Positions 3,619-28,940 of a stretch of 34,352 nucleotides of DNA are shown here, piece by piece. Under the pieces are notes generated by a model, which was not told the origin of the DNA, ran no database searches, and was given only the letters and a program-made list of their open reading frames with translations. The DNA is taken from IMG/VR virus record IMGVR_UViG_2660238524_000004, one strand, 5' to 3'. The stretch's first letter is position 1. Each line of letters begins with the position of its first letter. The translations under genes were made by a program, and so were the position numbers. This DNA is from a virus. Taxonomy: Duplodnaviria; Heunggongvirae; Uroviricota; Caudoviricetes.

Positions 3619-5893
3619 AGCCTCAGGGCGTTTTGTCCCTCCGTCAGCATTTGCTGCAGGCACCGGTAAGGCGTTTACTGGTGCTTATGCATGGAACGCG
3701 CCACGCGAGGCTGTCGGGCGCGAAAGACCTCTTACACGTGACGAGATGCGTCAGGTGCAAGGTGTTTTATCCACGATTAACCGCCTGCCTTACTTTTTGC
3801 GCTCGCTGTTTACTTCACGCTATGACTACATCCGGCGCAATAAAAGCCCGGTGCACGGGTTTTATTTCCTCACATCCACTTTTCAGCGTCGTTTATGGCC
3901 GCGCATTGAGCGTGTGAATCAGCGCCATGAAATGAACACCGACGCGTCGTTGCTGTTTCTGGCAGAGCGTGACCACTATGCGCGCCTGCCGGGAATGAAT
4001 GACAAGGAGCTGAAAAAGTTTGCTGCCCGTATCTCATCGCAGCTTTTCATGATGTATGAGGAACTCAGCGATGCCTGGGTGGATGCGCATGGCGAAAAAG
4101 AATCGCTGTTTACGGATGAGGCGCAGGCTCACCTCTATGGTCATGTTGCTGGCGCTGCACGTGCTTTCAATATTTCCCCGCTCTACTGGAAAAAATACCG
4201 TAAAGGGCAGATGACCACGAGGCAGGCATATTCTGCCATTGCCCGCCTGTTTAACGATGAGTGGTGGACTCATCAGCTTAAAGGCCAGCGTATGCGCTGG
4301 CATGAGGCGTTACTGATTGCTGTCGGGGAGGTGAATAAAGACCGTTCTCCTTATGCCAGTAAACATGCCATTCGTGATGTGCGTGCACGCCGCCAGGCAA
4401 ATCTGGAATTTCTTAAATCGTGTGACCTTGAAAACAGGGAAACCGGCGAGCGCATCGACCTTATCAGTAAGGTGATGGGCAGTATTTCTAATCCTGAAAT
4501 TCGCCGGATGGAGCTGATGAACACCATTGCCGGTATTGAGCGTTACGCCGCCGCAGAGGGTGATGTGGGGATGTTTATCACGCTGACCACGCCGTCAAAG
4601 TATCACCCGACACGTCAGGTCGGAAAAGGCGAAAGTAAAACCGTCCAGCTTAATCACGGCTGGAATGATGAGGCATTTAATCCAAAGGATGCGCAGCGTT
4701 ATCTCTGCCGTATCTGGAGCCTGATGCGCACGGCATTCAAGGATAATGATTTACAGGCCTACGGTTTGCGTGTTGTTGAACCACACCACGACGGAACGCC
4801 GCACTGGCATATGATGCTTTTTTGTAATCCACGCCAGCGTAACCAGATTATTGAAATCATGCGTCGCTATGCGCTCAAAGAGGATGGCGACGAAAGAGGA
4901 GCCGCGCGAAACCGTTTTCAGGCAAAACACCTTAACCGGGGCGGTGCTGCGGGATATATCGCGAAATACATCTCAAAAAACATCGACGGCTATGCACTGG
5001 ATGGTCAGCTCGATAATGATACCGGTAGGCCGCTGAAAGACACAGCTGCTGCTGTTACCGCATGGGCGTCAACGTGGCGCATTCCGCAATTTAAAACGGT
5101 TGGTCTGCCGACAATGGGGGCTTACCGTGAACTACGCAAATTGCCTCGCGGCGTCAGCATTGCTGATGAGTTTGACGAGCGCGTCGAGGCTGCACGCGCC
5201 GCTGCAGACAGTGGTGATTTTGCGTTGTATATCAGCGCGCAGGGCGGGGCAAATGTCCCGCGCGATTGCCAGACTGTCAGGGTCGCCCGTAGCCCGTCGG
5301 ATGACGTTAACGAGTACGAGGAAGAAGTCGAGAGAGTGGTCGGCATTTACGCGCCGCATCTCGGCGCGCGTCATATTCATATCACCAGAACGACGGACTG
5401 GCGCATTGTTCCGAAAGTGCCGGTCGTTGAGCCTTTGACTTTAAAAAGCGGCATCGCCGCGCCTCGGAGTCCTGTCAATAACTGTGGAAAGCTCACCGGT
5501 GGTGATACTTCGTTACCGGCTCCCACACCTTCTGAGCACGCCGCAGCCGTGCTTAATCTGGTTGATGACGGAGTTATTGAATGGAATGAACCGGAGGTCG
5601 TGAGGGCGCTCAGGGGCGCATTAAAACACGACCTGCGAACGCCAAACCGTCAGCAGAGAAACGGAAGCCCGTTAAAACTACATGAAATTGCACCATCGGC
5701 CAGACTGACCCGGTCGGAAAGAATGCAAATTACCCGTATCCGCGTTGACCTTGCTCAGAACTGTATCAGGCCGCAGCGATGGGAGTTTGAGGCGCTGGCG
5801 CGTGGCGCGACCGTAAATTATGACGGAAAAAAATTCACGTATCCGGTCGCTGATGAGTGGCCGGGATTCTCAACAGTAATGGAGTGGAAATGA
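3608..5893 (+). CDS. A: Rolling-circle replication initiator endonuclease, P2 gpA (about 761 aa)
   Basis: ORF track gives 3566..5893; N-terminus from the ATG at 3608 (MAVKASGRFVPPSAF...) and most of the protein match my recollection of P2 A; HUH-type motif region (PHWHMMLF) and paired active-site tyrosines (YIAKYISK) present. Confidence 0.9.
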   Translation: MAVKASGRFVPPSAFAAGTGKAFTGAYAWNAPREAVGRERPLTRDEMRQVQGVLSTINRLPYFLRSLFTSRYDYIRRNKSPVHGFYFLTSTFQRRLWPRIERVNQRHEMNTDASLLFLAERDHYARLPGMNDKELKKFAARISSQLFMMYEELSDAWVDAHGEKESLFTDEAQAHLYGHVAGAARAFNISPLYWKKYRKGQMTTRQAYSAIARLFNDEWWTHQLKGQRMRWHEALLIAVGEVNKDRSPYASKHAIRDVRARRQANLEFLKSCDLENRETGERIDLISKVMGSISNPEIRRMELMNTIAGIERYAAAEGDVGMFITLTTPSKYHPTRQVGKGESKTVQLNHGWNDEAFNPKDAQRYLCRIWSLMRTAFKDNDLQAYGLRVVEPHHDGTPHWHMMLFCNPRQRNQIIEIMRRYALKEDGDERGAARNRFQAKHLNRGGAAGYIAKYISKNIDGYALDGQLDNDTGRPLKDTAAAVTAWASTWRIPQFKTVGLPTMGAYRELRKLPRGVSIADEFDERVEAARAAADSGDFALYISAQGGANVPRDCQTVRVARSPSDDVNEYEEEVERVVGIYAPHLGARHIHITRTTDWRIVPKVPVVEPLTLKSGIAAPRSPVNNCGKLTGGDTSLPAPTPSEHAAAVLNLVDDGVIEWNEPEVVRALRGALKHDLRTPNRQQRNGSPLKLHEIAPSARLTRSERMQITRIRVDLAQNCIRPQRWEFEALARGATVNYDGKKFTYPVADEWPGFSTVMEWK

Positions 5894-15274: not shown

Positions 15275-15556
15275 ATGACAGCAGAAGAAAAAAGCGTCCT
15301 GTCGCTTTTCATGATTGGAGTGCTGATTGTTGTCGGCAAGGTGCTTGCCGGTGGTGAACCCATCACCCCGCGTCTGTTTATCGGGCGCATGTTGCTCGGT
15401 GGTTTTGTCTCGATGGTTGCCGGTGTTGTTCTGGTGCAGTTTCCTGACCTGTCACTGCCTGCGGTGTGCGGCATCGGCTCCATGCTGGGTATCGCCGGTT
15501 ATCAGGTGATTGAGATTGCCATTCAGCGCCGCTTTAAGGGCAGGGGGAAACAGTAA
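15275..15556 (+). CDS. Y: Holin, P2 gpY (93 aa)
   Basis: Small protein with hydrophobic segments and charged C-terminus directly upstream of endolysin; GGGAG RBS. Confidence 0.8.
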   Translation: MTAEEKSVLSLFMIGVLIVVGKVLAGGEPITPRLFIGRMLLGGFVSMVAGVVLVQFPDLSLPAVCGIGSMLGIAGYQVIEIAIQRRFKGRGKQ

Positions 15557-20424: not shown

Positions 20425-23049
20425 ATGAGCACGAAATTTAAAACCGTTATCACTACTGCCGGAGCCGCGAAGCTGGCAGCCGCCACTGTTCCCGGCGGGA
20501 AAAAAGTAAACCTGTCTGCAATGGCTGTGGGGGACGGTAATGGCCAATTGCCGGTGCCGGATGCCGGTCAGACGAAACTGGTGCATGAAGTCTGGCGTCA
20601 CGCTCTGAATAAAGTCAGCGTGGATAATAAGAATAAAAACTATATCGTGGCTGAACTGGTTGTTCCGCCCGAAGTGGGCGGCTTCTGGATGCGTGAGCTT
20701 GGTCTGTATGATGATGCCGGAACACTGATTGCGGTATCCAACATGGCAGAAAGCTATAAGCCAGAACTGGCTGAAGGCTCCGGACGTGCGCAGACCTGCC
20801 GCATGGTTATTATTCTCAGCAACGTGGCGTCCGTTGAGCTGAGTATTGATGCCAGCACAGTGATGGCGACGCAGGATTACGTCGATGACAAAATCGCAGA
20901 GCATGAGCAGTCCCGCCGCCATCCTGACGCCACGCTGACAGAAAAAGGTTTTACTCAGTTAAGCAGTGCAACAAACAGCACCAGTGAAAAGCTGGCGGCA
21001 ACGCCAAAGGCAGTAAAAGCAGCCTATGACAATGCTGAGAAACGTCTGCAGAAAGACCAGAACGGTGGCGATATTCCAGATAAGGGCGCTTTTCTGGACA
21101 ATGTTGGCGTTACCAGCCTGACGTTTATGAAACACAATGGAATGATTCCAACCACTGACAATCTTGACTCCTATGGCCCAGAAGAAAAATATCTTGGAAC
21201 GTGGTCATGCCCGTCACAATCCACTGCAAAACCAGAGTCTGGTTACCCTGAAGATAAAGGCAATGGGGTTCTGGAAGTATTCAATGCTGGTCGCTTTCAC
21301 TGCACACAACGCTACACCACCCGAACCGGTAATATTTACATTCGGATGATTGATGCAGAATGGAACCCTGTCAGTCCTGTATGGAGTGCATGGAGAGTTA
21401 TTACAAGCGGGACTCGCCCATTAAGCACGTCAATTGACCTGAATTCTTTAGGTGGTGCGGAACACCTGGGAATATGGCGCAATAGCAGTACATCAATAGC
21501 CTCATTTGACCGTCATTTCCCGGAGGAAGGGAGTTTTGGGCAGGGTATTCTGGAAGTCTTTGAAGGAGGTCTGTATGGGAGGATGCAACGTTACACCACC
21601 CGTAGTGGGACTATGTACATTCGCGGACTGACTGCCTCATGGGATGCAGAAAATCCACAATGGGAGGACTGGATTGCTGTTGGGTATCAGTCCACGGGAT
21701 GGACTTATTCAGGGGATCTTGATGACCTTTTAAAGCCTGGTATTTATAGCGTTACGAAACAGGCCACAAATGCACCTGTCACCGACTCTAAAGATCTTGC
21801 TGTTGGCTCAATAGTTGAAGTGAAAAAACGTTGTGATATTGAATCGTATATCCAGACATACACGACTGTTTCAGCAACGGATGCCTATAAAAACCGGACA
21901 TTTCAGCGAACCCGCGCCAGCGGTGAAACTGACTGGGGGGAATGGGCGGAAGTATACAACTCAAAATCATTACTCACTAAATTAGGTGTCGGCGGTGTTA
22001 CCGACAGGTTATCCAGTCTGGACTGGCAGACCTACGACTTTATACCGGGCAGCATGATAACTGTCAGGCTTTCAGATATGACCAATATTCCCGATGGGAT
22101 GGAATGGGGCGTCATTGATACTAACCTGATAAATATCACTGTTGGCCCCAGTGAAGGCGGAGGTGTCGCCCGTTCAATGCAGGTATGGCGCAGCACTTCA
22201 AACAAAACCAACTATCGTTTTTTTACAGTCCGCTTATATGGCAATCCTGGGGAGCGTAGCTTCAATATTCGTCGGCTACCAATTATCGACGAAGCCCAGA
22301 CATGGGAGGCAAAACAGACATTCAGTGCAGGCCTTTCTGGTGAACTGTCCGGCAATGCGGCTACAGCAACAAAGCTGAAAACGGCAAGGACAATTAACGG
22401 CGTAAAATTTGACGGCTCGGCAAATATTGAAGCGTTTCCGCCTGGTGTTCCGCTGCCGTGGCCATCAGATACACCACCTGCAGGATATGCAATCATGCAG
22501 GGGCAGACGTTTGATAAGACTGCATATCCGAAACTGGCTATTGCCTATCCTTCTGGTGTTATTCCAGATATGCGCGGCTGGACAATCAAGGGCAAACCCG
22601 CCAGTGGGCGTGCCGTATTGTCACAGGAACAGGACGGGATTAAATCGCATACTCACAGTGCCAGTGCGTCAAATACGGATTTGGGAACGAAAACAACCAG
22701 TTCGTTTGATTACGGGACGAAGACAGTCAGTACGTTTAACTACGGAACAAAAACCACTAATACCACTGGTAACCATACACATACCATTTACAGAGGGAAT
22801 GCCAATACTAATGGTGAAACCGGTAAAACAGGCTTTGACAACCCATCGTTTAATGGCACATCAGGAGCTGCCGGGAATCATGCCCACACGGTAGATATTG
22901 GCGCACATAATCATACGGTTGGTATTGGTGCACATTCACACACGGTTGCTATTGGCTCACACGGGCACTCTATTACCGTTAATGCTACAGGTAATACAGA
23001 AAACACCGTCAAAAACATCGCATTCAACTATATTGTGAGGCTTGCATAA
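20425..23049 (+). CDS. H: Tail fibre protein H (874 aa), mosaic: P2 H-like N-terminal anchor plus lambda Stf-like C-terminal receptor-binding region with HxH repeats
   Basis: First about 200 aa match my recollection of P2 H ([19 protein letters not shown]...); C-terminus ends ...[14 protein letters not shown] as in lambda Stf; His-rich GxHxH repeats ([33 protein letters not shown]). Confidence 0.85.
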
Positions 23050-23417
23050 TGGCTTTCAGAATGAGTGCAGAAGCACAAACTATCCGCGTTTTCAATTTAC
23101 TTGATGGAACCAATGAATTTATTGGCGAAAGTGATGCATATATTCCACCGTATACTGGCCTGCCTGCAAACAGTACAGATATTGCACCACCTGATATTCC
23201 TGCTGGTTATGCAGCCGTTTTCAATGCAGATGAAATGAAATGGGAGTTGATGGAAGATCATCGCGGAAAGACTGTCTACGAAACGAAAACGGGAGCAGCC
23301 ATTTATATTTCTGAACTTGGCGCATTACCTCCAGACGTGACAGCCATTTCCCCGGATGGGGATTATCAGAAATGGAACGGAAATGCGTGGGTGAATGATG
23401 AGTGCGTATTACCGTGA
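23049..23417 (+). pseudogene. tfa: Tail fibre assembly chaperone (lambda Tfa-like), N-terminal fragment truncated by IS insertion; last 15 nt, including the stop, come from the IS end
   Basis: N-terminus [51 protein letters not shown] closely resembles lambda Tfa; native reading frame ends at 23402 where the IS begins. Confidence 0.8.
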
Positions 23418-23487
23418 AGGAGATCGGTGAGTAACATCGATGGAGATCGGTTCGTGTCACTTTCACAGAACCGTTTTTAAATTACCT

Positions 23488-24237
23488 TCACTGATCTCCT
23501 TCGGTCAACGGAGATTGTATTTTCCGCATTGATTCTCCTTTAAGTTCGATCTTGATACTGCCATGAACCAGTCGATCTAGGATGGCATCCGCATGTGTGG
23601 AGTCTCCGATCATTTTGTACCAGTTTTCCACCGGCAACTGGCTCACTACGATGATTGAGCCTCGTTGGTACATCAGATCCACTATTTCCAGCAGGTCGCT
23701 ACGCTGTTCTGATGAGAGAGGTTCCAGCCCCCAGTCATCCAGAAGCAGCAGATCGCTATTATTCAGCCTGGTCAAAAGTTTGCTGTATCTTCCATCAGCA
23801 TGCCCCTGATAGCACTGTTCCATCAGCGCTTTAAGGCGATAATAGTAGACCTTGTATCCCTGTCGGCAGGCATTATGACCAAGTGCACATGCCAGGAACG
23901 TTTTACCGCTGCCGGTGGCCCCGGTCAGTAAAATATTTTGTTTCAGGGTTAACCAGTTTCCCTGACTGAGTGAACGGATGAGGGCCCTGTCCAGCCCTCT
24001 ATTGTTACGATAATCCAGCTTTGATAACTCAGCATTAAGTCTGAACCGTGCATGTTTGATCAGACGCTCTGCCTTCCTGTTTTCACGGCAGGTTAGTTCT
24101 TCTGCTGTCAGTAATGACAGGCGTTCTTCGAAGCCCAGCTCCTGGTATGTGCCCGGTTGAGCAAGTTGCTTTTTAAGCGCATCACGGAAGCCGGTGAGTT
24201 TAAGTGCGGTCAGTTGTTCGTAAAGATGATTCATCAT
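23488..24237 (-). CDS. istB: IS21-family helper ATPase IstB (249 aa)
   Basis: Walker A motif GATGSGKT and DnaA/DnaC-like AAA+ region; immediately downstream of istA. Confidence 0.9.
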   Translation of the reverse strand: MMNHLYEQLTALKLTGFRDALKKQLAQPGTYQELGFEERLSLLTAEELTCRENRKAERLIKHARFRLNAELSKLDYRNNRGLDRALIRSLSQGNWLTLKQNILLTGATGSGKTFLACALGHNACRQGYKVYYYRLKALMEQCYQGHADGRYSKLLTRLNNSDLLLLDDWGLEPLSSEQRSDLLEIVDLMYQRGSIIVVSQLPVENWYKMIGDSTHADAILDRLVHGSIKIELKGESMRKIQSPLTEGDQ

Positions 24238-24248
24238 TGGATCCCGTA

Positions 24249-25790
24249 TCAGTGGTAATACTCACTGCCGCGTACGTTTTCGTGTTCCATCGTGGATAAC
24301 AGATCTGGTTTTGGATCCTGAACAGGTTGTTTATCCAGACCTTTTTCCAGGATCGATTTAATACCTGACAGACGCCATACCTTTGTTTTCAGAGCTCTTG
24401 CACATGCTGCATTAAGTCTGGCTTTACTGTATTTTTTATGAAGGTTCAGGAGTCCAAGGCAGAAGCGATAGCTTTGTTCCGGATGTGGACGAGAGTTCAG
24501 TATATGAAGCACATAACTATGAGTTTCACTGCCTATGTGCCCCGCCCATTCCAGAAGACGCTCTGGCGTCCAGGTGGCATGCTGTCGATGAGCTTCAGGC
24601 ATGTGCTCGTTGCGGGTACTGTAGCCATAAGTACGCTTGCGCGGGTGCACAGCAACCTCCTGCCCCTGATTGAAGAGTCTTACCAGTTCTCCGGAGATCC
24701 ATGCTTCCAGTTGCTGGCCTAACAGCGAACATGGAACCGAGTAGTAATGTTTGTCGATTTCCACGTGGTAATCGGCATGAACTCTGACTTTCTTCACCAG
24801 GGTGTAACTGTAACTGGCTTCAGGAAGAGGCTTCAGTGCGGGTTTATCAAGCTGGATGAAGAGTTCTGCACGTGAATAACCCAACTTCTGCATTATTTTG
24901 TTATTCAGTCTTTCCAGCAACTCCCGAATGCGCTGATTAAGCGATGCAAGGCTGTAGAAGATCTCATGCCTGATTCGGGCCATGATCCAGCGTTCAACAA
25001 CCTGAACGCCAACTTCAGCTTTGGCTTTATCTTTCGGTTTACGTGGCCGCGCAGGCAAAACTGCGACATTATAATGCTCAAGCATCTGCTGGTAGGTAGG
25101 GTTAACGTCAGGATCATACTTACATGCCCTGGATGTGGCGCTTTTCAGATTGTCCGGAACAACAAGTTCAGGAACGCCACCCAACCACTGGAAGCAGCGA
25201 ACATGACTCATCACCCAGTCTTCAAGCTGCTGAGACCAGGTGGCCTCTGCCCATGTGTAACTTGATGCCCCGAGAACAGCTACGATGACCTGAGCAGTTC
25301 TTATTTCTCCGGTCTCAGGGTCGGTAACGCCAACGGTAGGTCCACAGTAATCAACGAAAAGTTTTTCGCCAGCTTTATGTACCTGACGCATTGATGGTGA
25401 AGTGGTTTTGAGCCATTCACGGTACATCCGGCAGTAATGGTTATAGCTGTAAAAACCGCCTGGATTACGCTCACAGTATTCTTCCCAGAGTAGCTGCAGC
25501 GTCACGCATTTATTACGCAGTTCCCGGTGTACTGTAGCCCAGTCAGGCAGAGAGTGCTTCTTCATCTTAACCTGGGTCTGAAGGAACGCATGTTTTAGTT
25601 TTGTATCATCCCATCCTGTAGGTAAGGGCCACTGCTTTATGCCAAGTTGAGCCGCCCGATTAGCATATCTGGATACAACGGAAGGGGAGATTGCAAGACT
25701 ACGACCAATTTGTCGATGGCTGAGTCCAACACCGTATTTAAGCCTAAGAATTTCTTTAAGTTTTCTCATAGAAATTGGAACTGTTGGCAT
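24249..25790 (-). CDS. istA: IS21-family transposase IstA (513 aa)
   Basis: N-terminal HTH, central DDE-type integrase core; followed by istB with a short spacer as in IS21-family elements. Confidence 0.9.
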   Translation of the reverse strand: MPTVPISMRKLKEILRLKYGVGLSHRQIGRSLAISPSVVSRYANRAAQLGIKQWPLPTGWDDTKLKHAFLQTQVKMKKHSLPDWATVHRELRNKCVTLQLLWEEYCERNPGGFYSYNHYCRMYREWLKTTSPSMRQVHKAGEKLFVDYCGPTVGVTDPETGEIRTAQVIVAVLGASSYTWAEATWSQQLEDWVMSHVRCFQWLGGVPELVVPDNLKSATSRACKYDPDVNPTYQQMLEHYNVAVLPARPRKPKDKAKAEVGVQVVERWIMARIRHEIFYSLASLNQRIRELLERLNNKIMQKLGYSRAELFIQLDKPALKPLPEASYSYTLVKKVRVHADYHVEIDKHYYSVPCSLLGQQLEAWISGELVRLFNQGQEVAVHPRKRTYGYSTRNEHMPEAHRQHATWTPERLLEWAGHIGSETHSYVLHILNSRPHPEQSYRFCLGLLNLHKKYSKARLNAACARALKTKVWRLSGIKSILEKGLDKQPVQDPKPDLLSTMEHENVRGSEYYH

Positions 25791-25983
25791 AGGTATCCTT
25801 TACCGGAATGGCAAAAGATACAGATCAACACACCTGTGAAGTTCCAATAACATTGATGGAGATCACTGAATAACAAAATGAGTCAAAAGTGATCTCCATC
25901 GATGTTATTCAGCGATCTGTTCAAATGTTATTACCCGATCTCGATGGAAGTTATTGAGTGATCTCCTTTCATGAAAATACGCA

Positions 25984-26213
25984 ATGAGAATGCAGAGCGT
26001 GATGCACTTGTCAGAGCGGCGGAGTCTCAGAAGAAAGAGCAGATTGCATATGCCGGTGAAATTATTGCCACGCTGCAGGATGCTGTCGATTTAGATATGG
26101 CTACCGAGGAAGAAAAGTTAAGTCTGACACACTGGAAAAAATACCGTGTGCTACTGAATCGCGTTCAGCCGGAAGATGCTCCGGATATAGAATGGCCGGA
26201 AATGCCGCGATAA
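25984..26213 (+). pseudogene. tfa: Tail fibre assembly chaperone (lambda Tfa-like), C-terminal fragment downstream of the IS
   Basis: Frame continuing from the target duplication encodes ...NAERDALVRAAESQKKEQIAYAGEIIATLQDAVDLDMATEEEKLSLTHWKKYRVLLNRVQPEDAPDIEWPEMPR, resembling the lambda Tfa C-terminus; joining 23049-23402 to 25989-26213 restores a 192-aa ORF. Confidence 0.8.
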
Positions 26214-26469
26214 ATTGTATTAGCTCGGATGTGAGTTTACACATCTATAGCACAGAGTAAAACCTAATCTGGCTGTCCGCTCTGTGCTAGGAGCGGACAT
26301 TACCAAGTAACATGCCTTAATCAAAAGGAAATGGTTAATATATGCCATCATTGTTTGAAAAATACGCAGTCATATATTGCTATGAACATTGTTGGTGCAT
26401 TAACTTGCTTAAGAAACTACAATTAAGCATCATAAAATACTCTTATGACTTTTAAGGCTCTACCGTATC

Positions 26470-26877
26470 ATGGCTAAGCGGATTCCTGGTGTTAGTAAAG
26501 AATGGTCTAACTATCTCCTTTGTTTATTATTACATATGTCTTTACCTCTCTTACCTTTGGGGTTCGAGACACTTGTGCGTTCCGATCACTTGCCATCAAT
26601 ACAAACATTAAACATTACAGCGGCGTTTTATGCGATCTCGATAGGGCTTTCTTCTAAGAACGTTGCTATGTTTGGTTTGGGTATATTCGTGAGCATTTGT
26701 TTCTCTGTTGTATTTGGGATTGTTTCTTCAAATCCTAATTCTGATCCTAATCTTAATTTTAATGATAACTTGTATTTTTATTCTCCAATTGCGTGTATTG
26801 TTGCTATATTTGTTATACATGCATGTGAACGATATAACAGGCATGTTGCTGATTGTACACCATTTTTTGAGTTTTAA
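26470..26877 (+). CDS. Cargo gene at the Z/fun-equivalent locus: small multi-pass membrane protein (up to 135 aa), unknown function
   Basis: AT-rich ORF with several hydrophobic segments (LLCLLLHMSLPLLPLGF, AAFYAISIGL, FGLGIFVSICFSVVFGIV, IACIVAIFVI); no clear RBS at the first ATG so the start is uncertain. Confidence 0.45.
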   Translation: MAKRIPGVSKEWSNYLLCLLLHMSLPLLPLGFETLVRSDHLPSIQTLNITAAFYAISIGLSSKNVAMFGLGIFVSICFSVVFGIVSSNPNSDPNLNFNDNLYFYSPIACIVAIFVIHACERYNRHVADCTPFFEF

Positions 26878-26886
26878 GGGGGTGCT

Positions 26887-27378
26887 ATGATTGATACAAT
26901 TATCCCAGTAATACTATCAATTCTCCCGGCAATACTATCTATATTTAGCTTAGTAGCTGTTTCTATAGGTGCATTAGTATCTATCAGGTCTGTTAAAAAA
27001 AGACGTGAAATAGAAGTTCAGCTTTTTAATGAGATAATAAATCAACAAATTAAACAAACTAAAAGCAACCGTAAAAAGGATCTTGAAAATAGTGTTAATG
27101 AAATAGAAAATGAACTCAAGAGAAGAGTTGATATTTTGAATAAAATGCAAAAAGATCTAGAAGCAGTTTCAGAGAACAAATACTATTTTGATAAAGCAAA
27201 ATATCTTCGAAATGTCAAGTATGGAGAGTATTTATTAGAGATAAATGAAGCTGTGAATAATATTGATAATAAAAACAAACACTTACTAAATAACGCTCTT
27301 AATCAAAGCTCTGAGATTGGAAAAGTAAGATATCTTGGAAGAATAACAAAGGAAGCACTGGAAAAAACAGTAGGCTGA
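26887..27378 (+). CDS. Cargo gene at the Z/fun-equivalent locus: single-TM protein with long K/E/N-rich coiled-coil-like domain (163 aa), unknown function
   Basis: RBS AAGGGGG 6 nt upstream of the ATG; N-terminal hydrophobic segment IIPVILSILPAILSIFSLVAVSIGALV then charged helical region; very AT-rich. Confidence 0.65.
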   Translation: MIDTIIPVILSILPAILSIFSLVAVSIGALVSIRSVKKRREIEVQLFNEIINQQIKQTKSNRKKDLENSVNEIENELKRRVDILNKMQKDLEAVSENKYYFDKAKYLRNVKYGEYLLEINEAVNNIDNKNKHLLNNALNQSSEIGKVRYLGRITKEALEKTVG

Positions 27379-27620
27379 TCATTTTTTCCGCTCGTAATAG
27401 ATAAACTCAAAGGTTCTTTTTGAGAGCCTTTGAGTTTCAATCTTACCAATATTACTCACCATTTCTTTAGCAGCAATTTGGGGACTATAACTTCTACTTC
27501 TTGCTGTGAGTTCAACCGATGGATACAACACATTGGCTAAAACGCCCTGTGGGTGATTCATAGTCTAGCGTTTGGACTCCGTAAATTCACAGTTGGAAAC
27601 TGAGCGAGTACAAATCAAGG

Positions 27621-27650
27621 CCGGCGGGCTGATTGCCCGCCTTTTCTTTA
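27621..27650 (+). terminator. Rho-independent terminator-like hairpin between cargo locus 2 and the FI late promoter
   Basis: GGCGGGC-tgatt-GCCCGCC stem-loop followed by TTTTCTTT. Confidence 0.5.
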
Positions 27651-27660
27651 CCGGTGGTTG

Positions 27661-27690
27661 TGCTGTTGATTAGCCAACCGGGACAAATAG
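27661..27690 (+). promoter_or_regulatory. Candidate Ogr-dependent late promoter element for the FI-FII-E-T-U-D operon
   Basis: GTGCTGTTGATTAGCCAACCGGGACA about 65-90 nt upstream of the FI ATG; shares the GTGCTGTTG ... GAT(A/T)AGCCA(A/T)CCGGGAC motif with the P/O region. Confidence 0.45.
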
Positions 27691-27749
27691 CCTGACATCT
27701 CCGGCACAACTGAAAATACCACTCACCCATTAACCACGGAGTTAAACGG

Positions 27750-28940
27750 ATGAGTGACTATCATCACGGCGTGCAGGTGCTGGAGATTAACGACGGCACC
27801 CGCGTCATTTCCACCGTATCCACGGCCATTGTCGGCATGGTCTGCACAGCCAGCGATGCGGATGCGGAAACCTTCCCCCTCAATAAACCGGTGCTGATTA
27901 CCAATGTGCAGAGCGCAATTGCAAAGGCTGGTAAAAAAGGCACGCTGGCGGCGTCGTTGCAGGCCATCGCTGACCAGTCAAAACCGGTCACCGTTGTCGT
28001 GCGTGTTGAAGACGGCACAGGCGACGACGAAGAAACGAAACTCGCGCAGACCGTTTCCAATATCATCGGCACCACCGACGAAAACGGTCAGTACACCGGA
28101 CTGAAAGCCCTGATGGGGGCTGAGTCGGTTACCGGCGTTAAACCGCGCATTCTTGGTGTGCCGGGGCTGGACACCAAAGAGGTTGCCGTCGCACTGGCAT
28201 CGGTATGCCAGGAACTGAATGCATTCGGGTATATCAGCGCATGGGGCTGTAAAACCATTTCCGAGGTGAAAGCCTACCGCCAGAATTTCAGCCAGCGTGA
28301 GCTGATGGTTATCTGGCCGGATTTCCTCGCATGGGATACGGTCACCAGTACCACCGCCACCGCGTATGCCACCGCCCGTGCGCTGGGGCTGCGCGCTAAA
28401 ATCGACCAGGAGCAGGGCTGGCATAAAACGCTGTCCAACGTCGGGGTAAACGGTGTTACCGGCATCAGTGCATCTGTATTCTGGGATTTGCAGAAGTCTG
28501 GCACTGATGCTGACCTGCTGAACGAGGCAGGCGTCACAACGCTGGTTCGCCGCGACGGTTTCCGTTTCTGGGGTAACCGTACCTGCTCCGATGACCCACT
28601 GTTCCTCTTTGAAAGCTACACACGCACTGCGCAGGTACTGGCCGACACGATGGCTGAGGCGCACATGTGGGCTATTGATAAGCCCATCACCGCAACGCTG
28701 ATTCGCGACATCATTGACGGCATCAATGCCAAATTCCGCGAACTGAAAAACAACGGTTATATCGTGGATGGCACATGCTGGTTCAGTGAAGAATCCAACG
28801 ATGCGGAAACCCTCAAGGCCGGAAAACTGTATATCGACTACGACTATACCCCGGTGCCTCCCCTCGAAAACCTGACCCTGCGCCAGCGTATTACTTCAAG
28901 ATACCTGGCAAGTCTGGTCACCTCGGTTAACAGCAATTAA
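27750..28940 (+). CDS. FI: Tail sheath protein, P2 gpFI (396 aa)
   Basis: Length identical to P2 FI; followed by tube, E/E', tape measure. Confidence 0.9.
   Translation: MSDYHHGVQVLEINDGTRVISTVSTAIVGMVCTASDADAETFPLNKPVLITNVQSAIAKAGKKGTLAASLQAIADQSKPVTVVVRVEDGTGDDEETKLAQTVSNIIGTTDENGQYTGLKALMGAESVTGVKPRILGVPGLDTKEVAVALASVCQELNAFGYISAWGCKTISEVKAYRQNFSQRELMVIWPDFLAWDTVTSTTATAYATARALGLRAKIDQEQGWHKTLSNVGVNGVTGISASVFWDLQKSGTDADLLNEAGVTTLVRRDGFRFWGNRTCSDDPLFLFESYTRTAQVLADTMAEAHMWAIDKPITATLIRDIIDGINAKFRELKNNGYIVDGTCWFSEESNDAETLKAGKLYIDYDYTPVPPLENLTLRQRITSRYLASLVTSVNSN

Follow-up and report, generated by a model that had tools for sequence, protein, structure and literature searches.

A conserved 24-bp palindrome at the left end of the Z/fun cargo slot of P2-like prophages as a candidate core site for cassette exchange by a small tyrosine recombinase

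In P2-like phages the slot between the tail fibre assembly gene G (tfa) and the tail sheath gene FI, known as Z/fun, is a recognised hotspot and a textbook case in the mining for anti-phage defence systems. The title of the paper linked to the P2 Z-region GenBank records (Nilsson, Karlsson & Haggard-Ljungquist, Mol Biol Evol 2004; AJ512676–AJ512683) proposes site-specific recombination linking P2-like phages and pathogenic enterobacteria. The records themselves mark only repeats of ~113 and ~91 nt; a 24-bp core, a partner recombinase, arrays and breakpoints are absent from them, are added here and may be in the 2004 paper. The entry and exit of cargo at Z/fun and in islands have so far mostly been ascribed to unspecified recombination. 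Here we analyse a P2-like prophage of 34,352 nt (IMG/VR record IMGVR_UViG_2660238524_000004; this whole stretch is referred to as the window), in which two overlapping inverted repeats at 26249–26299 had been noticed from the letters alone. The original prediction named three possible roles: an RNA switch resembling an attenuator, a processing site, and a remnant of the recombination junction by which the cargo arrived. The feature is the already known left inverted repeat of the P2 Z/fun region, annotated since 2004. We propose, at a probability of about 0.62, that it forms the left end of the insertion filling the slot between G and FI, and that the palindrome within it, designated site B, is a lox/FRT-like core for recombinase-mediated cassette exchange.

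The left arm (26214–26274, + strand) is the outer portion of the "left inverted repeat" of the P2 Z region and leads into site B (26275–26298, no strand assigned). The latter is a perfect inverted repeat, GTCCGCT-CTGTGCTAGG-AGCGGAC, which would serve as the tyrosine-recombinase core and as the left boundary of the cassette. In the window its arms extend to 9 bp (26274–26282 and 26291–26299) around an 8-bp spacer, whose motif reads GTGCTA where the consensus has GTGCCA, while the general form is GTCCGCT-N10-AGCGGAC with 7-bp arms. Taken over its copies, the site consists of inverted arms TGTCCGCT / AGCGGACA of 7–9 bp and an asymmetric 8–10-bp spacer, CTGTGCYAGG, that is, the two inverted arms and short asymmetric spacer of a lox-, FRT- or dif-like core. 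Both predicted inverted repeats are present and perfect. Stem 1 pairs TAGCACAGAG (26248–26257) with CTCTGTGCTA (26280–26289) over 10 nt, one pair more than predicted, and stem 2 (hairpin 2, identical with site B) pairs TGTCCGCTC (26274–26282) with GAGCGGACA (26291–26299) over 9 nt. All positions of both stems are paired (100%), and nucleotides 26280–26282 are shared, as had been claimed. Stem 1 owes its existence to TGGCACAGAG, a stretch of the left arm that repeats, in inverted form, the sequence joining the 5′ arm of site B to its spacer. The "mutually exclusive" stem is a by-product of this arm, where TAGCACAGAG duplicates part of the site-B spacer in inverse orientation. Such repeats exceed chance: the window contains 26 perfect 9-mer inverted repeats with a loop of 3–30 nt, and 200 dinucleotide-shuffled versions gave 4.3 ± 2.8.

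Related loci were collected through the FI protein: 80 IMG/VR loci with FI proteins 85–100% identical were kept from 597 relatives found. The end of G and the start of FI could both be placed in 52 of these 80, which together with the window, P2 and P2-EC46 make up the 55 loci analysed. Seven of them are empty. Here the G stop is followed by ACACA and a terminator, GGCGGGCTGATTGCCCGCC-T(n), FI lies 132–142 nt beyond a G-end marker set 5 nt ahead of the stop codon, and site B, the arms and the right-hand partner site, site A, are all absent. The 48 occupied loci share one order: G stop, an arm of ~66 nt (or 54), site B, cargo, site A, an arm of ~70 nt, terminator and FI. Site B reads GTCCGCT-CTGTGCCARR-AGCGGAC and stands at +54 or +66 from the G stop in 40 of the 48, and site A reads GTCCGCT-YYTCGCTCAA-AGCAGAC, at FI −216, and falls between FI −204 and −220 in 36; the other loci inspected hold degenerate copies in place. 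Some loci (L183 and L185) contain two-cassette arrays of the form B-c1-A-18 nt-B-c2-A.

The left arm, missing from the empty sites, shows 89% mean column identity among 34 distinct P2-like copies. Similarity to window positions 26100–26470 ends at ~26298–26308, at the 3′ arm of site B, for most of the 80 phage records. In the P2-like copies the cargo-side arm varies with the cargo, whereas the arm facing the backbone and the greater part of the spacer go with the lineage of the backbone. P2 itself carries site B at 15335–15358 of NC_001895. Window positions 26190–26308 align to positions 7–129 of AJ512680 with 85% identity, site B corresponding to 92–115 there. A "left inverted repeat" is annotated in AJ512676, AJ512680, AJ512682 and AJ512683, and in the three records examined (AJ512676, AJ512680 and AJ512682) repeat_region 3–115 ends exactly at the end of site B. 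The right repeat starts at site A in AJ512680; it is labelled "right inverted repeat" in AJ512680 and AJ512682 and is unlabelled in AJ512676. Lying directly 3′ of the gene G stop and being homologous to the annotated repeat, the feature belongs to this family of left inverted repeats, and the predicted boundary of tail operon and cargo is the conserved left boundary of the Z/fun cargo slot.

These comparisons among P2-like phages would also suit a passive boundary relic of one ancient insertion, consisting of short homology patches or of break sites prone to form hairpins or cruciforms, with no dedicated recombinase. Since the empty sites lack the whole arm-B...A-arm unit, the unit came in as a single insertion, and arms conserved at ~89% by descent, cargo-side arms that are degenerate in many copies, a window that lacks a recombinase gene and the availability of flanking G and FI for exchange from P2 to P2 all agree with such a relic. 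The loci outside P2-like prophages bear on it directly.

A 71-nt query around the feature matches 1609 of 5426 complete E. coli genomes (blastn), at 1–3 places in each, and many of these matches lie outside P2 prophages. Site B adjoins yeeP-like GTPase genes in CP4-type islands and also occurs in an island with SIR2, restriction-enzyme and TPR genes. Related arms precede it in CP4-like islands and in E. coli islands adjacent to type VI secretion system (T6SS) genes, and in every non-P2 case the sequence diverges immediately 3′ of site B. An exact-pattern scan of one genome per species places sites, among the matches listed, also in Pantoea, Phytobacter, Klebsiella, Leclercia, Mixta, Ewingella and further genera. 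In these other Enterobacterales the sites form doublets, site A often lying ~18–22 nt before site B, sometimes twice within 0.7–4 kb.

Longer arrays are exemplified by the island of CFT073, which has the order B-c1-A-int-B-c2-A-c3-A-B-c4-A (in our notation the A and the B on either side of int carry a star); its cassette c2 represents the ETEC_3214 family. Cassette c3 is also the cargo of a P2-like locus (L161), the two being identical through the 5′ arm and spacer of site A (CCTCGCTC) and continuing thereafter into their own backbones. A second cassette is common to a P2-like locus (L196) and a non-P2 locus (L227), where it lies between a doublet and a recombinase gene; the two copies are 98.9% identical over 1961 bp. 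Their left breakpoint is inside site B: the flanks are unlike and the 5′ arm is common, spacer positions 1 and 7 differ, and from the 3′ arm onwards, cargo included, the copies are identical. On the right, identity runs through the 5′ arm and spacer of site A (CCTCGCTCA) and is then lost. The exchange breakpoints thus fall inside the sites at both ends for L196/L227 and at the A end for L161/CFT073, and together with the variation of the cargo-side arm they place the crossover at the end of the spacer that adjoins the 3′ arm of each site. The suggestion that the feature is a relic of the junction that delivered the cargo was therefore essentially right, as homology between phages ends at the 3′ arm of site B and cassette breakpoints lie within it. 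For a passive relic these cross-backbone exchanges are awkward, since the partners have only the 24-bp site in common and both ends break inside sites.

In CFT073 (L291:11571–21582, chromosome 4111570–4121581) the fourth cassette, c4, holds a 5.7-kb iron-uptake operon between site B and site A. It comprises a TonB-dependent siderophore receptor and a three-gene ATP-binding cassette (ABC) transporter, and shares the array with small cassettes of unknown function and a recombinase gene.

A comparison of all loci revealed a ~700-bp segment common to four backbones, namely the CFT073 island, a P2-like Z-region (L184), Phytobacter and a Klebsiella plasmid. The product is a protein of 200 aa that has Phage_integrase (PF00589) as its sole domain and in which residues R51, K79, H148, R151, H174 and Y183 are invariant and only ~33 N-terminal residues precede the catalytic domain. 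A phmmer search of this protein against PDB returned nothing and a profile was needed; the family profile matches XerD, XerC, XerA and XerH among solved structures. The family includes at least 7,998 protein clusters at E ≤ 1e-10 (7,998 of the 8,000 scored). The best 120 listed relatives are 76–96% identical and are spread across gammaproteobacterial genera, and homologues with 52–57% identity lie among sites in two alphaproteobacterial loci.

The recombinase gene is always located within a doublet. Upstream there is an A-like site, GTCCRCT-YYTCGCTCATA-AGGGAC, and after it a conserved leader; directly behind the stop codon there is a stem-loop fused to CTGTGCCANNAGCGGAC, which corresponds to the spacer and 3′ arm of site B. 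The half-site GTGCCANNAGCGGAC stands +28 to +30 nt past the last aligned codon in 17 of 17 distinct gamma-type flanks, against a background of 0.011 per 90 nt; a variant half-site, GGCCAGAAGCGGAT, is found in more distant members of the family. Of 5426 complete E. coli genomes, 928 (17%) carry the gene, so that the enzyme would often be available in trans. Linkage of a cognate recombinase to the sites is thus seen in related loci and not in the window. Three of these observations also speak against a passive relic: the half-site keeps a fixed distance behind the recombinase gene in every flank, the catalytic hexad is kept intact across the whole family, and the site, including its spacer, is conserved from E. 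coli to Alphaproteobacteria. In view of these and of the breakpoints we consider a passive relic unlikely.

Two further observations concern the recombinase gene and its surroundings. The leader (L005:5540–5579, and all gamma-type loci, e.g., L224:3960–4000) has the form AACCATACTCAAATCTCC-CACATTGC-AGGAGATTTGAGT-ATG, and an 8-bp inverted repeat within it, AAATCTCC / GGAGATTT, overlaps the ribosome-binding site, possibly as an operator or as a hairpin that controls translation. In a group of gammaproteobacterial contigs from marine metagenomes and genomes (L209–L216) the recombinase is 84% identical (gene at 5001–5603) and lies between arsenic- and copper-resistance modules, in an element that carries a Toprim primase gene. 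The site B half-site is directly behind the gene there, and an insertion sequence (IS; DDE_Tnp_1) is often inserted just after it.

According to the mechanism that we propose, a cassette would be bounded by B on the left and by A on the right, sites that are alike in their arms and unlike in their spacers (YYTCGCTCAA in A). The ~200-aa Xer-like recombinase, encoded elsewhere, would bind the arms and exchange strands in the spacer. B would recombine with B and A with A, and the B-cargo-A segment would be swapped between replicons. Where like sites stand in direct repeat, a circle with the cargo and a doublet might be excised and might insert at any like site, and such insertion would give arrays of the type ...A-B-cargo-A-B.... 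We infer from the sequence comparisons that the exchange would be conservative and site-specific, with the recombinase acting on both B and A. The mechanism would account for the constant, exact boundaries, for the conservation of the "loop" sequence, and for the arrays, the shared cassettes and the breakpoints.

Several points weigh against this proposal. The pairing of the recombinase with the sites rests on linkage and breakpoints, and only two recent cross-backbone exchanges have been mapped. The window contains no recombinase gene, and a scan of it for an A-type site found none, site A being lost or unrecognisable and the first 12 nt of the right arm gone, so there is no sign of present-day activity here. 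Breakpoints at short conserved palindromes could also arise through microhomology-mediated or hairpin-stimulated illegitimate recombination, and for exchange confined to P2-like phages homologous recombination in G and FI would suffice, with no need of a special site. The ~66-nt arms, and the first entry of the arm-B...A-arm unit into an empty G–FI site, are not accounted for, and no target-site duplications are evident at the borders of this unit when compared with empty sites. A spacer of 8–10 bp is at or above the upper end for known tyrosine recombinases. Lastly, the alphaproteobacterial sites behave as multicopy repeats of the repetitive extragenic palindromic (REP) type, and a mobile-repeat model would fit them equally well.

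The latter model would see the feature as a palindrome akin to REP sequences or to their paired form, REPINs, self-spreading through a transposase or a small recombinase and accumulating between genes and at island borders, where it would perhaps stabilise mRNA or bind nucleoid proteins, with no role in cargo. The sampled alphaproteobacterial loci (Xanthobacteraceae, Pseudolabrys, Methyloceanibacter) contain 536 sites in 678 kb, or 0.79 per kb. Their arms are near-invariant in hundreds of copies, and their spacers fall into three classes (GTGCCA, GGGTCA and ACCCCC), arranged in doublets and triplets and in both orientations. The recombinase gene in these loci is flanked by sites just as genes of REP-associated tyrosine transposases (RAYTs) are flanked by REPs, and the enterobacterial A-~18 nt-B doublets resemble deletion derivatives of A-int-B. 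In Enterobacterales, however, the sites are few per genome (only the 1–3 places per matching genome in E. coli), occur nearly only at the borders of mobile-element cassettes and always in the order B-cargo-A, and the breakpoints of identical cassettes fall within them. A mobile palindrome without a cargo role therefore seems to us improbable for the feature in question. The multicopy intergenic family with the same 7-bp arms was recorded in loci L009–L128 (e.g., L115:860–6330, L074 and L114), including Hyphomicrobiales, and its repeats give spurious peptides of the MSALPPKADM... type when translated.

Extending the cassette-exchange proposal beyond the P2 slot, we tentatively suggest, at somewhat short of even odds, that the A/B sites and the ~200-aa Xer-like recombinase may constitute a widespread natural cassette-exchange system combining an integron- or pdif-like logic with lox-like sites. 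Throughout Gammaproteobacteria it would shuffle defence, virulence and metabolic cassettes, up to the size of operons, between plasmids, P2-like prophages and genomic islands of the CP4 and other types. The sites would, in certain Alphaproteobacteria, have proliferated into REP-like repeats, and Z/fun would be one docking platform among others.

The two remaining roles named in the original prediction belong to the RNA level, where the mutually exclusive hairpins in the late read-through transcript of V-W-J-I-H-G would form an attenuator or switch, provide a processing site or stabilise the 3′ end. Besides being perfectly paired in the window, the feature lies in a 117-nt region that folds at −34.7 kcal/mol, better than shuffled sequences on either strand (+ strand, z = −3.1; − strand, z = −3.3), and the minimum-energy fold of the + strand contains hairpin 2 only. 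Stem 1 is 94.8% paired across the 34 distinct P2-like left arms. Moreover, the late transcript probably reads through the feature, since the V operon terminator annotated in P2 lies ~365 nt downstream of G, beside the 3′ end of the opposite-strand fun(Z). Nevertheless, a scan for terminators and promoters found nothing at 26249–26310 on either strand. Hairpin 2 is followed by TTACCAAGTAAC and not by a U-tract, so that, as had been stated from the start, this G+C-rich stem-loop is no classical intrinsic terminator; the sole terminator-like site of the region is GGCGGGCTGATTGCCCGCC with its T-run at 27623–27650 (+ strand; stem 27623–27641). An Rfam search of 25900–27800 at E ≤ 10 gave no match at the feature.

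The pattern of variation tells against selected pairing as well. Stem 1 is paired because its sequence is nearly invariant: among the 34 P2-like copies double changes are seen at one of its nine pairs, and its count measures are no higher than those of shuffles. The seven core pairs of stem 2 are 74–100% paired in the same copies, and all variants break pairs with none compensating. In L183, L294 and CP4-like islands the spacer of site B carries an uncompensated T>C change, the upstream segment is unmatched, and stem 1 is not kept. Among the 536 alphaproteobacterial sites the arm variants GTCTGCT and AGCAGAC behave independently (49 and 36 singly and 5 together, where ~4.4 would be expected), and therefore the pairing is not under selection. 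The "loop" sequence GTGCCA, on the other hand, is conserved from Gamma- to Alphaproteobacteria; conserved arms around a conserved asymmetric spacer have the look expected of a protein-recognised recombination site rather than of a hairpin loop. Where the cargo genes of a phage are on the + strand, site B lies upstream of them, and where they are on the − strand it lies downstream, so that its fixed relation is to the cassette and not to transcription. Phages with an empty slot pass from the G stop to a canonical terminator without the feature. Thus, structure prediction and covariation across related prophages yield neither compensatory base pairs in either stem nor a match to a described RNA family, and we regard an RNA-level function as very improbable. 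Of the roles first suggested, the attenuator-like switch finds no support, and neither does the processing site, as the orientation of the palindrome tracks the cassette rather than the direction of the cargo genes and the palindrome also occurs in unrelated, non-transcriptional contexts.

Two other candidates were set aside. A folded single-stranded DNA structure of the attC-like or REP-like kind was dropped in view of the independent arm variants and the conserved spacer sequence. An element of the IS200/IS605 type, with a hairpin at either end, was dropped because B-cargo-A and A-spacer-B cannot both represent left end...right end on one strand; that the linked enzyme is a tyrosine recombinase also disfavours it.

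In the window, the cargo cassette following site B occupies 26300–27487 (+ strand). It carries two genes, encoding a membrane-like protein of 135 aa (26470–26877, +) and a protein of 163 aa (26887–27378, +), and an inverted repeat at 27394–27446. Neither protein has a Pfam or PADLOC match. The cargo is rare: apart from phage P24A7b, only 2 of 5426 E. coli genomes have it. A DNA search shows the locus to be identical to those of Peduovirus P24A7b and E. coli AR_0081. In non-P2 E. coli islands (L294–L297) a two-gene module with 79% protein identity stands between a left-arm homologue with site B and site A with TGTCAGATTTGATAG, in the neighbourhood of T6SS VasL and Qat genes. More distant homologues of the cargo (62% protein identity), from the L298–L302 set, occur in a Morganella lambdoid prophage between Dam methylase and DUF1367/NinG-like genes and next to T6SS Hcp genes in Pectobacterium islands. 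Sites A and B are undetectable around the homologues in the Morganella lambdoid prophages and the Pectobacterium islands, and therefore the module also travels by other routes. The pair is an accessory module that travels widely and might act in defence or as a membrane effector.

At the right end, homology to the cassette of L294 ceases at ~27488, where L294 has AACTTCCGCTTCTCGCTCATAGCAGAC-TGTCAGATTTGATAG. The place expected for site A is occupied in the window by a 5′ fragment of an IS30-family transposase gene (− strand; 27379–27561, above all 27488–27561), with ~84% DNA identity to plasmid IS30/ISCfr4 genes. The partner "right inverted repeat" is reduced to the outer 57 nt of its arm (27566–27622, + strand), which match the sequence TAGCGTTTGGGCTATGTAAATTGTCAG...GAGTACAAATCA found behind site A in other P2-like loci; the rest is replaced by the IS30-family fragment. 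The terminator mentioned above, the same that directly follows the G stop in empty sites, comes next, and the conserved backbone resumes with FI (27750–28940, +). With site A lost and no recombinase gene at hand, the cassette is probably frozen, and site B in the window is an orphan boundary of a cassette probably immobilised by IS activity. A segment at 27489–27512, AACTTCTACTTCTTGCTGTGAG, resembles site A at 16 of 22 positions, which may reflect chance or targeting of the palindrome by the IS.

On the left side, the conserved backbone ends with the C-terminal part of gene G (25971–26213, + strand; Pfam Caudo_TAP, 7.7e-27). The predicted location just downstream of tfa is correct in position, but the gene is not intact: only its C-terminal 80 codons directly precede the feature. 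The N-terminal part (23049–23417), which starts where gene H ends (23049), is cut off by an IS21-family element at 23418–25970. This element contains istB (23488–24237, −) and istA (24249–25790, −), with an IstB_IS21 match (2.2e-67) and rve and Mu-transposase C-terminal domains. Its terminal repeats lie at ~25850–25965, and short inverted repeats near 25855–25904 resemble multiple terminal repeats of the IS21 type. Given the split gene G, functional tail fibres are probably not made by this prophage. Within the tfa coding sequence, at 25985–26176 (+), Rfam gives a sub-threshold match to IS009 (E = 5e-8; 42.5 bits, where the gathering score is 117); it is probably due to homology among tail fibre assembly genes and not to an RNA. 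The P2-like loci without a standard gene G end (L134, L138, L139, L156, L157, L163, L166, L173, L177 and L180–L182) share tail-fibre/tfa segments, in both orientations, with the unrelated prophages L275–L278, L232 and L233, which also carry genes or fragments of the small recombinase family. This suggests invertible or swapped tail-fibre modules beside the Z/fun hotspot.

For the window itself the result is modest, an orphan boundary. More generally, what were two unexplained hairpins can now be delimited as a site of 24 bp, for which a partner site is known, breakpoints are mapped and an enzyme encoded in 17% of complete E. coli genomes can be put forward as a candidate. If the proposal is true, it would provide a concrete, testable mechanism for cargo exchange at a classic phage "moron" and defence hotspot, and would explain the presence of identical cassettes in prophages, pathogenicity islands and plasmids. 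Cassette boundaries would become predictable from sequence, offering a new route to delimit and discover cargo systems, and the compact natural recombinase/site pair with its heterospecific spacers could be of use in genome engineering.

Full-text searches of one literature collection with the site sequences, the recombinase leader sequence and the MSALPPKAD peptide found nothing relevant, and keyword searches returned only integron and Xer papers, with no small recombinase whose lox-like sites bound prophage or island cassettes. Among described elements, a Rho-independent terminator or attenuator resembles the feature in having a G+C-rich stem-loop beyond the final gene of an operon, with two pairings possible as alternatives. 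It differs in that the U-tract, covariation, leader peptide and known sensor are all missing here, and in that empty phages have a canonical terminator instead. With REP sequences, bacterial interspersed mosaic elements (BIMEs) and the REPIN-RAYT system, the sites have in common that they are short multicopy palindromes, in intergenic doublets in the alphaproteobacterial loci, and that the gene of a putative mobilising enzyme is flanked by the repeats. However, the linked enzyme is an integrase-family tyrosine recombinase and not an HUH Y1 transposase, there is no 5′ tetranucleotide of the GTAG type, and the copies in Enterobacterales are few and located at cassette borders.

Integrons are similar in their promiscuous cassette arrays, imperfect palindromic sites, array-linked tyrosine recombinase and cargo of defence, virulence and unknown functions. 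The attC sites of integrons, however, measure 60–140 nt and have R″/L″/L′/R′ boxes and extrahelical bases, whereas the sites described here are 24 bp long, with near-perfect arms and a conserved spacer. Compared with the attC pattern (RYYYAAC...GTTRRRY, 57–141 nt; no attC covariance model was used), site B is too short and its arms are perfect, and the flank after it, RTT followed by variable sequence such as GTTGCTAAC, does not fit GTTRRRY. Furthermore, no constraint on pairing is seen here, two types of site flank each cassette, the cassettes have their own promoters, stand in either orientation and can be multi-gene operons, and the nearest solved profile relatives of the 200-aa recombinase are Xer proteins, not IntI. 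The pdif (Xer) modules of Acinetobacter plasmids are likewise bounded by short Xer-type sites in alternating orientation, shared among replicons and served by a recombinase acting in trans. They differ from the present cassettes, which have a dedicated small recombinase gene embedded in their arrays and are hosted by Enterobacterales prophages and islands and by Alphaproteobacteria. The arms are also not known to resemble the XerC/XerD half-sites of dif. Compared with Cre/loxP and Flp/FRT, finally, the system is natural and unrelated to both (the profile finds only Xer proteins), the arms are 7–9 bp instead of 13 bp, and the activity is a proposed one. Nevertheless, the design is the same: inverted arms surround an asymmetric spacer that would set compatibility and direction, and the cassette lies between sites of the same arms and different spacers, as in engineered cassette exchange.

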